Positions 32,691-33,361 of a DNA stretch of 38,040 nucleotides are shown piece by piece. The stretch is taken from sequence record PQ850616.1. One strand, written 5' to 3'. This DNA is from Escherichia phage Louie. Each line of letters opens with the position of its first letter. Within the stretch, counting starts at the first letter, position 1. A model generated the notes under the pieces. That model made no database searches. It was given only the letters and a program-made list of their open reading frames with translations, and was not told where the DNA came from. The position numbers were made by a program, and so were the translations under genes.

Positions 32691-32859
32691 TCCATCCCAA
32701 TCCCTTCAATACCAGAAAGAAAGCGTCGAGCGGGCTTTAACGTGCGCTAACTGCGGTCAGAAGCTGCATGTGCTGGAAGTTCACGTGTGTGAGCACTGCT
32801 GTGCAGAACTGATGAGCGATCCGAATAGCTCAATGTACGAGGAAGAAGACGATGAGTGA
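32683..32859 (+). CDS. ninF: NinF
   Basis: …YQKESVERALTCANCGQKLHVLEVHVCEHCCAELMSDPNSSM.EEEDD matches recalled lambda NinF; start 32683 or 32671. Confidence 0.85.
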   Translation: MLSPSQSLQYQKESVERALTCANCGQKLHVLEVHVCEHCCAELMSDPNSSMYEEEDDE

Positions 32860-33361
32860 TGTTAAAGAAAAAGATATCCCCGGCTTTGAGGGTATATATA
32901 AAGTAACTGAAAATGGAGACATCATTTCATGCCGTAAATCAAAAAAATTATCTCATGGCATTAAACCAGGAGGATATGCATTTGTCGGTCTGTATCCAGG
33001 TGGCGGGAAAAGACCATCATATAAAATGGTTCACAGAATTGTTGCAGAAGTATTTATTGATAACCCAGATGGCAAACCGGAAGTTAATCACAAGGATGGA
33101 AATAAACTTAATAATAAAGTTGAAAATCTTGAGTGGGTAACGCGAACAGAAAATGCGAAACATGGATTTGATTCCGGATTGCTTGTTCATGGGTTTAATC
33201 ATCACTTCTGCAAACTAACGCCAGAACAAGTGAAATCAATATATAAATCAAAAGGCAAATACAGAGATATAGCCAAAGAATTTGGTGTTTGTGCGCAGAC
33301 AGTGTGCAACATAAAAAACAAATCAGCGTACCGACGTTTTTTGGAGGGGATTGATGTTTAG
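32852..33361 (+). CDS. HNH homing endonuclease (NUMOD4-like N-terminus + HNH_3)
   Basis: GFEGIYKVTENGDIIS (NUMOD4-like) and VNHKDGNKLNNKVENLEWVTRTEN (HNH); strongly AT-rich relative to flanks. Confidence 0.78.
   Translation: MSDVKEKDIPGFEGIYKVTENGDIISCRKSKKLSHGIKPGGYAFVGLYPGGGKRPSYKMVHRIVAEVFIDNPDGKPEVNHKDGNKLNNKVENLEWVTRTENAKHGFDSGLLVHGFNHHFCKLTPEQVKSIYKSKGKYRDIAKEFGVCAQTVCNIKNKSAYRRFLEGIDV

Follow-up and report, generated by a model that had tools for sequence, protein, structure and literature searches.

The HNH enzymes I-HmuI, I-HmuII as well as I-BasI have been described as strand-specific nickases that act a few bases away from their insertion sites, and MobE of phage T4, a promoterless free-standing HNH endonuclease, nicks the adjacent gene in phages lacking the endonuclease, with co-conversion of the flanking DNA. 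Free-standing homing endonucleases have been well studied in virulent T-even phages and little in temperate lambdoid or P22-like phages. Here we analysed an AT-rich open reading frame (ORF) located at positions 32852-33361 of a window of 38,040 nucleotides (nt) from Escherichia phage Louie (record PQ850616.1), whose genome is that of a complete P22-like (Lederbergvirus) Escherichia coli phage with Escherichia phage Dewey as closest database relative. The ORF, referred to below as the HNH gene, lies in the nin region between ninF and a gene for a protein of 91 amino acids (aa) that precedes rusA. We consider that it probably constitutes a free-standing, promoterless homing endonuclease gene of the I-HmuI type, whose product would be a monomeric HNH/N enzyme, most likely a site-specific nickase, with its homing site at the 5' end of a YbcO-family gene. 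We infer the term homing endonuclease from anatomy and distribution; similarly, we infer by analogy with described enzymes the nuclease activity, the formation of a nick or a double-strand break, the exact target and the endonuclease-driven spread.

The NUMOD4 and HNH domains named in the initial annotation were both recovered by Pfam above the gathering thresholds, which are 23.4 bits for NUMOD4 and 24.8 bits for HNH_3; the HNH_3 match reached 42.2 bits (E 6.2e-11) and covered profile positions 1-45 of 46. The protein also matched PHROG 59, 'HNH endonuclease' (E 7.6e-51), and NCBIfam gave no match to it or to the 91-aa protein. The only solved structure similar in sequence was that of I-HmuI (PDB 1U3E; E 9e-19, residues 6-121). 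An AlphaFold model built from 45 homologs, with a predicted local distance difference test (pLDDT) score of 90.7, displayed the three-part fold of I-HmuI, consisting of a beta domain, a beta-beta-alpha-metal core and a helical C-terminal domain, and in a Foldseek search of the PDB 1U3E appeared as the sole match with E below 0.001 (E 5e-10, 164 of 169 columns, template modelling score 0.58). Strands were modelled in the NUMOD4 region at residues 6-8, 16-19, 24-26 and 43-47, the region aligning with I-HmuI residues 3-45. The helices of the C-terminal domain (124-132, 137-144, 148-155 and 161-166; pLDDT above 84) weakly resembled the helix-turn-helix (HTH) domains of resolvase, Tc3 and sigma-4 in Foldseek, and this region gave sub-threshold Pfam matches to CENP-B_N, HTH_23 and HTH_7.

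Residues H80, N92 and N101 are invariant across the 45 homologs and align, respectively, with the catalytic H75, the structural N87 and the metal-binding N96 of I-HmuI, the last of these having been described as experimentally validated. Among eight HNH copies compared, 13 distinct synonymous changes were counted versus three amino-acid changes at two codons, one of them codon 2 at the junction, a ratio which indicates purifying selection. The possibility of a decaying pseudogene was ruled out for the Louie copy, given its intact ORF, its invariant catalytic residues and the dominance of synonymous changes.

Regarding its anatomy, the HNH ORF overlaps each neighbouring ORF by 8 nt. Its Shine-Dalgarno sequence (GAGGAAG) is carried together with its start codon in the last ninF codons, and that of the 91-aa gene (GGAGG, 33341-33345) lies inside the HNH ORF. 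No promoter-like or terminator-like site for the HNH gene exceeded shuffle expectation, a Rfam scan of 32300-33900 returned no family match at E <= 1, so no intron RNA, and the only repeats found were short (10-17 nt), none of them at the ends of the cassette. On account of the overlaps and of this lack of promoter, terminator, intron and repeats, we regard the gene as a free-standing one that has no promoter of its own and is coupled to its neighbours in translation as a part of the pR nin operon. A group I intron or an intein was rejected in view of the negative Rfam result and of a separate ORF that overlaps both neighbours, and a transposon or insertion sequence was likewise discarded in the absence of terminal inverted repeats and target-site duplication.

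The downstream gene had been described initially as DUF1364-like. Against Pfam YbcO (PF07102, formerly DUF1364) the 91-aa protein scored 18.9 bits (E 1.5e-3), below the gathering threshold of 29.9 bits, whereas its HK629 counterpart scored 147 bits. BLASTP aligned it with HK629 gp58 at E 3e-7 over 55 residues, with a common CxxC...CxxCH..ID pattern. By these comparisons the homology is real, so that the description holds in the sense of a distant relative of YbcO, but not of a member of the Pfam family. A search of PDB sequences with the 91-aa protein gave chance-level matches only. In a metagenomic relative, the 97-aa gene that follows HNH (locus L063, 3018-3311) has precomputed Pfam matches to RecA_dep_nuc, the family of phage P1 Ref, and a weak one to DUF968, which hints that the 91-aa/YbcO family could consist of Ref-like small HNH nucleases.

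The association with this gene family extends well beyond Louie. In E. coli, Salmonella, Klebsiella aerogenes, Citrobacter koseri, Superficieibacter and a metagenomic contig, the genes for HNH homologs of 58-75% identity are all immediately followed by a 91-97-aa gene of this family, and they lie next to unrelated left neighbours (DNA methylase, DUF1367, 81-aa and 100-aa genes) and to right neighbours that also differ (rusA or Q-like genes). A more distant homolog from Basfia (55%) sits between an intact YbcO gene and rusA, and every member of the HNH clade examined adjoins a YbcO-family gene. In six HNH-bearing lineages (60-100% identity) the 91-aa gene begins with M-(F/Y)-R-S-K-K-W-L, its ATG lying inside the final HNH codons at the same codon; the HNH stop is a TAG within the overlap in most of these lineages and falls a few codons further on in two. 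At some 38 loci without HNH, the stretch Y-R-S-K-K-W-L is preceded by 1-4 variable native codons. Since the same codon recurs in the six lineages, as opposed to the variable native codons of the HNH-less loci, the right junction is fixed at one codon, while the left junction varies. The site specificity of the HNH clade for the start of a YbcO-family gene, as deduced from these alignments, is the most informative result of our analysis.

The 91-aa gene itself does not need the HNH gene. Of 37 species-level loci of 91-aa-type genes, sampled at one genome for each species, 36 were without HNH, the lone carrier genome also had an HNH-less copy, and SEN22 and HK225 likewise lacked HNH at this gene. 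These loci rule out an obligate two-gene system made up of HNH and the 91-aa gene.

Comparison of the ninF-to-rusA slot among related phages showed what the HNH gene replaces. In HK629, HK97, mEpX2 and others, roi comes next after ninF and precedes a true YbcO gene; in ECP1, an 89-aa gene and YbcO come after ninF. The flanks of HK97, HK629 and ECP1 are 97% identical to those of Louie; by megablast, the homology of HK629 and ECP1 to Louie breaks off just past ATGAGTGA, at 32860-32865, and is restored at position 33626, exactly where rusA begins. With respect to these two phages, the exchanged unit is thus the HNH gene plus the 91-aa gene, in place of roi (or the 89-aa gene) plus YbcO. The initial annotation, which had placed the HNH gene as an insertion between ninF and the DUF1364-like gene, was right as to the position, but a simple insertion does not describe a swap of the two-gene block.

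A swap of this kind might also take place passively, if the HNH gene were one of several exchangeable ninF-to-rusA cassettes moved by ordinary homologous or illegitimate recombination, with the endonuclease uninvolved or no longer active. The slot indeed holds roi in HK629, HK97 and mEpX2 and the 89-aa gene in ECP1, every breakpoint falls on a gene border and two HNH copies are inactivated, as detailed below. Nevertheless, the strong purifying selection and the invariance of the catalytic residues speak in favour of an active protein. Unlike roi, moreover, the HNH gene meets the 91-aa gene at an unchanged nucleotide-level junction in lineages of 58-73% identity with unrelated left neighbours. 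This constant junction therefore suggests site specificity rather than a random shuffling of modules, and we regard purely passive exchange as rather improbable.

The same comparisons bear on a variant of the homing explanation, according to which the enzyme targets the 5' end of the common YbcO gene, HNH travels with a divergent, cleavage-resistant 91-aa homolog, and repair replaces YbcO, together with roi where present. The replaced block corresponds exactly to HNH plus the 91-aa gene versus roi or the 89-aa gene plus YbcO (32861-33625). Several of the homologs with 58-75% identity, of about 178 aa, start with 13-16 YbcO-type codons (MANLRKEARGREC...) fused in frame to the HNH core. In QML220601, where roi and HNH stand in tandem after ninF, the interval between the two (locus L005, 1862-1898) contains the first 31 nt of YbcO (ATGGCTAATCTACGCAAAGAAGCACGCGG), joined to a stretch of about 14 nt similar to the 3' end of ninF, and HNH is followed by the 91-aa gene. 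This interval has the look of a scar left when DNA was joined illegitimately at the YbcO 5' end, and two independent junctions in this way fall within about 18 nt of that end. In addition, 34 of the 37 E. coli genomes with this 91-aa allele have HNH upstream of it, the E. coli prophages of NCTC9104, RM8082 and DETEC-S565 carrying the allele at 98.9% identity without HNH; the homology of the HNH-less NCTC9104 and RM8082 to Louie starts at 33363, two bases past the HNH stop. On the other side, 91-aa-type genes are common without HNH, as seen in the 36 of 37 species-level loci, and the allele is hence not specific to the element. The YbcO-start fusions may represent either a single old fusion or repeated events, and in the former case the YbcO remnants could stem from that one fusion followed by divergence. 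Moreover, the Basfia HNH gene, downstream of an intact YbcO, would need another site or immunity by sequence divergence. Balancing these points, we retain the variant as a tentative possibility, less likely than not. Its formulation as a two-gene 'allele-replacement drive', in which the nuclease would cut the common YbcO 5' end, repair would overwrite YbcO and roi with HNH and a cut-resistant functional homolog, and the YbcO fusions would be the scars, appears to us unlikely. If true, temperate phages and co-resident prophages of Enterobacteriaceae would provide a documented case of intronless homing in which an immune allele is packaged along with the nuclease.

The HNH gene proved to be sporadic. 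We surveyed 50,697 phage records and 5,426 complete E. coli genomes, and Dewey (CDS0060, 100% protein identity) was the only carrier among the phages, where 225-435 records match the flanking nin region without the gene (carriers 1/435). At the protein level the wider family comprised 1,720 phage records at E <= 1e-10, nearly all of them below 45% identity. In E. coli, 34 genomes carry HNH, 33 as ninF-HNH-91aa-rusA at 98-99% identity and one as a deleted copy. Comparison with other nin regions was hence in agreement with a gene that is not universal among relatives (1/435 phage records and 34/5,426 E. coli genomes). The lineage of 73% identity from E. coli (L011) was not present in the complete E. 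coli genomes when HNH-less relatives of it were sought there. The HNH-bearing E. coli prophages vary in their upstream nin genes (ninE, NinX, cytosine methylase, 3'-phosphoadenosine-5'-phosphosulfate reductase and ninD), Q type and lysis cassette, and the block that they share with Louie ends at gene borders, mostly at 32683 or 32717 on the left and at 33988, 34174 or about 34890 on the right.

Two of the natural copies are knocked out, independently of each other. The copy of E. coli EA7 is interrupted by W95* (locus L015, 4170-4454), and that of E. coli AH19B041 (locus L006, 1136-1315) has lost 330 bp in frame, the HNH core included, which leaves a 59-aa NUMOD4-only ORF that retains the overlap with the downstream gene. 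By analogy with other homing genes, such decay would fit their life cycle. Taken together, the I-HmuI fold with an intact active site, the selection, the sporadic presence, the single site, the linkage to a flanking allele and the occasional decay compose the standard signature of a free-standing homing endonuclease gene.

Purifying selection, on the other hand, would also be expected if the nuclease were kept for a benefit to its carrier, such as nicking competing lambdoid phages or satellites, modulating host immunity, or recombination with the adjacent small nuclease and RusA. The constant adjacency to a YbcO-family nuclease gene, usually beside rusA, points in this direction, as does NixI, an I-HmuI-like nickase used by a satellite against a phage, and recent reports, in outline, speak of phage homing endonucleases that attenuate or evade bacterial immunity. 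Yet hardly any related phage has HNH, and 36 of the 37 loci of the partner gene lack it, so that it is dispensable for the function of the latter; the two independent natural knock-outs persist in prophages; and PADLOC recognised the protein solely by its generic 'HEase' model, not as a defence system, for which reason we discarded a component of a known defence system. We judge it decidedly improbable that such a benefit explains the gene, even if benefit and selfish homing are compatible with each other, and its rarity and the natural knock-outs argue against an essential role.

Returning to homing as the preferred explanation, the gene would be transcribed from pR as part of the delayed-early (nin) operon, during lytic growth or induction. 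Its translation would be coupled to that of both neighbours, the final HNH codons supplying the ribosome-binding site and the ATG of the 91-aa gene, and because these start/stop overlaps couple it to its neighbours the HNH gene could sit in the operon without harm. When a carrier phage or prophage meets a related lambdoid genome without HNH, the enzyme would nick or cut that genome at the 5' end of its YbcO-family nuclease gene or close by, and recombinational repair from the HNH-carrying genome would copy in HNH together with the linked 91-aa allele or adjacent DNA. As for the target, there are two candidate models. It could be the 5' end of HNH-less 91-aa alleles, as supported by the fixed junction; alternatively, YbcO alleles could be targeted at their 5' end and the roi/YbcO block replaced as a whole, as supported by the fusions, the QML220601 remnant and the block boundaries.

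Several observations weigh against this explanation. No isogenic empty site was found, the ninF being of another type in all three genomes that have this 91-aa allele without HNH. Immediately 3' of the junction the sequence is conserved (0.72-0.80), but no more than the rest of the 91-aa gene, and hence conservation neither marks a recognition site nor decides between the two target models. All block boundaries lie on gene borders, as ordinary lambdoid mosaic recombination also gives, so that the spread does not by itself require an endonuclease. We found in the literature no cleavage, nicking or homing experiment on the HNH protein or a close relative. Finally, the acidic residue that precedes the catalytic histidine is missing, N79 aligning with I-HmuI D74, which Shen et al. 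in 2004 reportedly identified as a metal ligand. Among the 45 homologs, N79 is either invariant or conserved to at least 90%, and because of this conservation within the clade we interpret it as a clade feature, not as decay; both other HNH_3 proteins of Louie have D-H at the position of N79-H80.

The base composition of the HNH ORF deviates strongly from that of its surroundings, as the initial annotation had noted. Its guanine-plus-cytosine (GC) content is 36.7%, with 27.6% at third codon positions (GC3), versus 47.7% for the whole window (standard deviation 4.0 in 510-bp windows) and 48-50% in the 2-kb flanks of the gene. Windowed GC revealed a strong local dip: the lowest-GC 510-bp stretch of the entire 38 kb falls in the HNH ORF, and only 0.08% of such windows are equally low. 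In all lineages compared, the HNH gene exceeds its flanks in AT content, and the GC3 of the Louie copy is the most extreme among enterobacterial members (others 36-46%), being similar only in the Basfia copy. With regard to the recent horizontal acquisition proposed from this composition, low GC is a common trait of such genes and for that reason composition alone cannot date the event. The identity of at least 99% across varied prophage backgrounds and a GC3 below that of sister lineages speak for it; in contrast, the HNH clade as a whole has long been resident at this same site in enterobacterial lambdoid phages, its members having diverged there to 58-75% identity. A recent acquisition is thus plausible, not proven, and the pattern fits a fairly recent spread of the HNH lineage of Louie in particular.

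Coordinates and supporting matches of the features discussed are collected in the following table, which also includes the other HNH genes of Louie.

Table 1. Features of the HNH locus and related genes in phage Louie, in positions of the window unless a locus is given
Feature	Position	Strand	Support or remarks
HNH gene: I-HmuI-like HNH endonuclease, 169 aa, free-standing, AT-rich	32852..33361	+	Intact ATG-to-TAG ORF
NUMOD4 domain, N-terminal, beta-rich, residues 7-48	32870..32995	+	Pfam PF07463, 29.2 bits, E 1.1e-6
HNH core (beta-beta-alpha-metal), residues 58-102, with N79-H80, N92 and N101	33023..33157	+	Pfam HNH_3 PF13392
C-terminal four-helix HTH-like domain, putative DNA-binding, residues ~124-166	33221..33349	+	AlphaFold model and weak matches
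ninF, left neighbour	32683..32859	+	Pfam NinF E 3e-12; span matches the 177-bp ninF annotated in E. coli prophages
ATGAGTGA: HNH ATG overlapping the ninF stop; left mosaic junction	32852..32859	+	Shared with HK629 (roi) and ECP1 (89-aa gene), divergence directly after
ATGTTTAG: ATG of the 91-aa gene within the final HNH codons (..D-V-stop); right junction	33354..33361	+	
91-aa gene: small Zn-finger/HNH-like, constant right-hand neighbour, putative homing-site gene	33354..33629	+	PHROG 131 'HNH endonuclease' E 6e-31
rusA, Holliday junction resolvase, right flank	33626..33988	+	Pfam RusA E 2e-16
YbcO-start/HNH fusions	L011 3001-3050		P0002, P0003, P0006, P0008, P0011, P0016, P0022, P0024
HNH_3 protein, 175 aa, weak AP2-like tail	5058..5585	-	HNH_3 E 4e-22
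HNH_3 protein, 155 aa, weak AP2-like tail, GC 0.43	22694..23161	-	HNH_3 E 1.6e-23

The HNH gene had been counted as the fourth of its kind in the phage and as the third architecture, and the domain searches agreed with both statements, since NUMOD4 plus HNH_3 plus an HTH-like domain stands here versus two HNH_3/AP2-like proteins and the PHROG 131 protein. The two HNH_3/AP2-like proteins are related to each other at E 1e-25 and to the NUMOD4 HNH protein only at about 1e-4. The 175-aa one is encoded between a scaffold-like gene (4146-5057) and a coat-like gene (5647-6942), on the opposite strand and in an island whose GC (0.39) is the second-lowest in the genome, and from this arrangement its gene looks like another free-standing homing endonuclease gene in the head-gene cluster. 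The gene for the 155-aa protein is located in the early-left operon and adjoins a Gp157-like gene. A third low-GC island (25441-26190, minimum 0.37) extends over the 5' part of a 340-aa ORF without Pfam match (24739-25761, minus strand), which lies just downstream of an N-like gene (26092-26475, N36 domain).

Two other ORFs were observed further to the right. A 138-aa ORF without Pfam match (34969-35385, minus strand) is found between the Q gene and the lysis genes. The Q-to-holin gap of HK629, AH19B041 and phage N7 holds other HNH endonuclease genes, that of N7 being a 40%-identical NUMOD4-HNH, and this gap seems to serve as another cargo slot. A 156-aa protein encoded immediately past the lysis genes (36932-37402, plus strand) contains a domain similar to Tad2 (Thoeris anti-defence 2; Pfam E 9e-27).

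The HNH gene is an uncharacterised member of a well-known class, already annotated automatically in public databases: RefSeq names the E. coli copies, among them WP_001000608.1 of E. coli 042, 'NUMOD4 motif-containing HNH endonuclease', and the Dewey copy is entered as 'HNH endonuclease'. The genome announcement of Huey, Dewey and Louie makes no mention of HNH genes, and a literature search found no functional study of this one. The new points are modest: within the lambdoid nin region the gene is strictly associated with the 5' end of a YbcO-family gene, and there are scars that suggest YbcO allele replacement. Louie and Dewey are cultivable and, together with the HNH-less HK97, HK629 and ECP1 and their 97%-identical flanks, they offer a convenient system in which to ask whether such nucleases shape the mosaicism of the lambdoid nin region and promote exchange between co-resident prophages. 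The HNH gene is most likely dispensable cargo, and the presence of four HNH-type genes in 38 kb is relevant for engineering or mixed infections.

Among known systems, I-HmuI of Bacillus phage SPO1 resembles the Louie protein in size (174 versus 169 aa), in domain order and in the conservation of the catalytic histidine and two asparagines. Overall, the two proteins share about 29-32% identity, their C-terminal thirds cannot be aligned by sequence, N79 stands in place of D74 and the putative target gene differs; moreover, the I-HmuI gene lies inside a DNA polymerase gene, within a group I intron, whereas the Louie HNH gene is free-standing with overlapping neighbour ORFs. In this latter respect it is closer to T4 MobE and to the mob (HNH) and seg (GIY-YIG) genes of T-even phages, which are also free-standing, placed between conserved genes, promoterless and reliant on upstream transcription, and the co-conversion of flanking markers by MobE matches the tight linkage of the Louie HNH gene with the 91-aa allele. 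Unlike the mob and seg genes, which belong to virulent T-even phages, the Louie gene resides in a temperate lambdoid/P22-like phage and in prophages; compared with mob, it belongs to another HNH subfamily (NUMOD4 plus HNH_3), overlaps both neighbours and supplies the downstream start codon. The Roi/KilAC antirepressor cassette of HK97, HK629 and Shiga toxin phages occupies the same slot after ninF with the same ATGAGTGA start/stop overlap, but Roi is unrelated in protein and function and is followed by a true YbcO gene, in contrast to the divergent 91-aa allele that comes after HNH. Finally, the WP_001000608.1 family and Dewey CDS0060 represent the same gene as that of Louie, with 98-100% protein identity, at least 98% DNA identity and the same ninF-HNH-91aa-rusA order.

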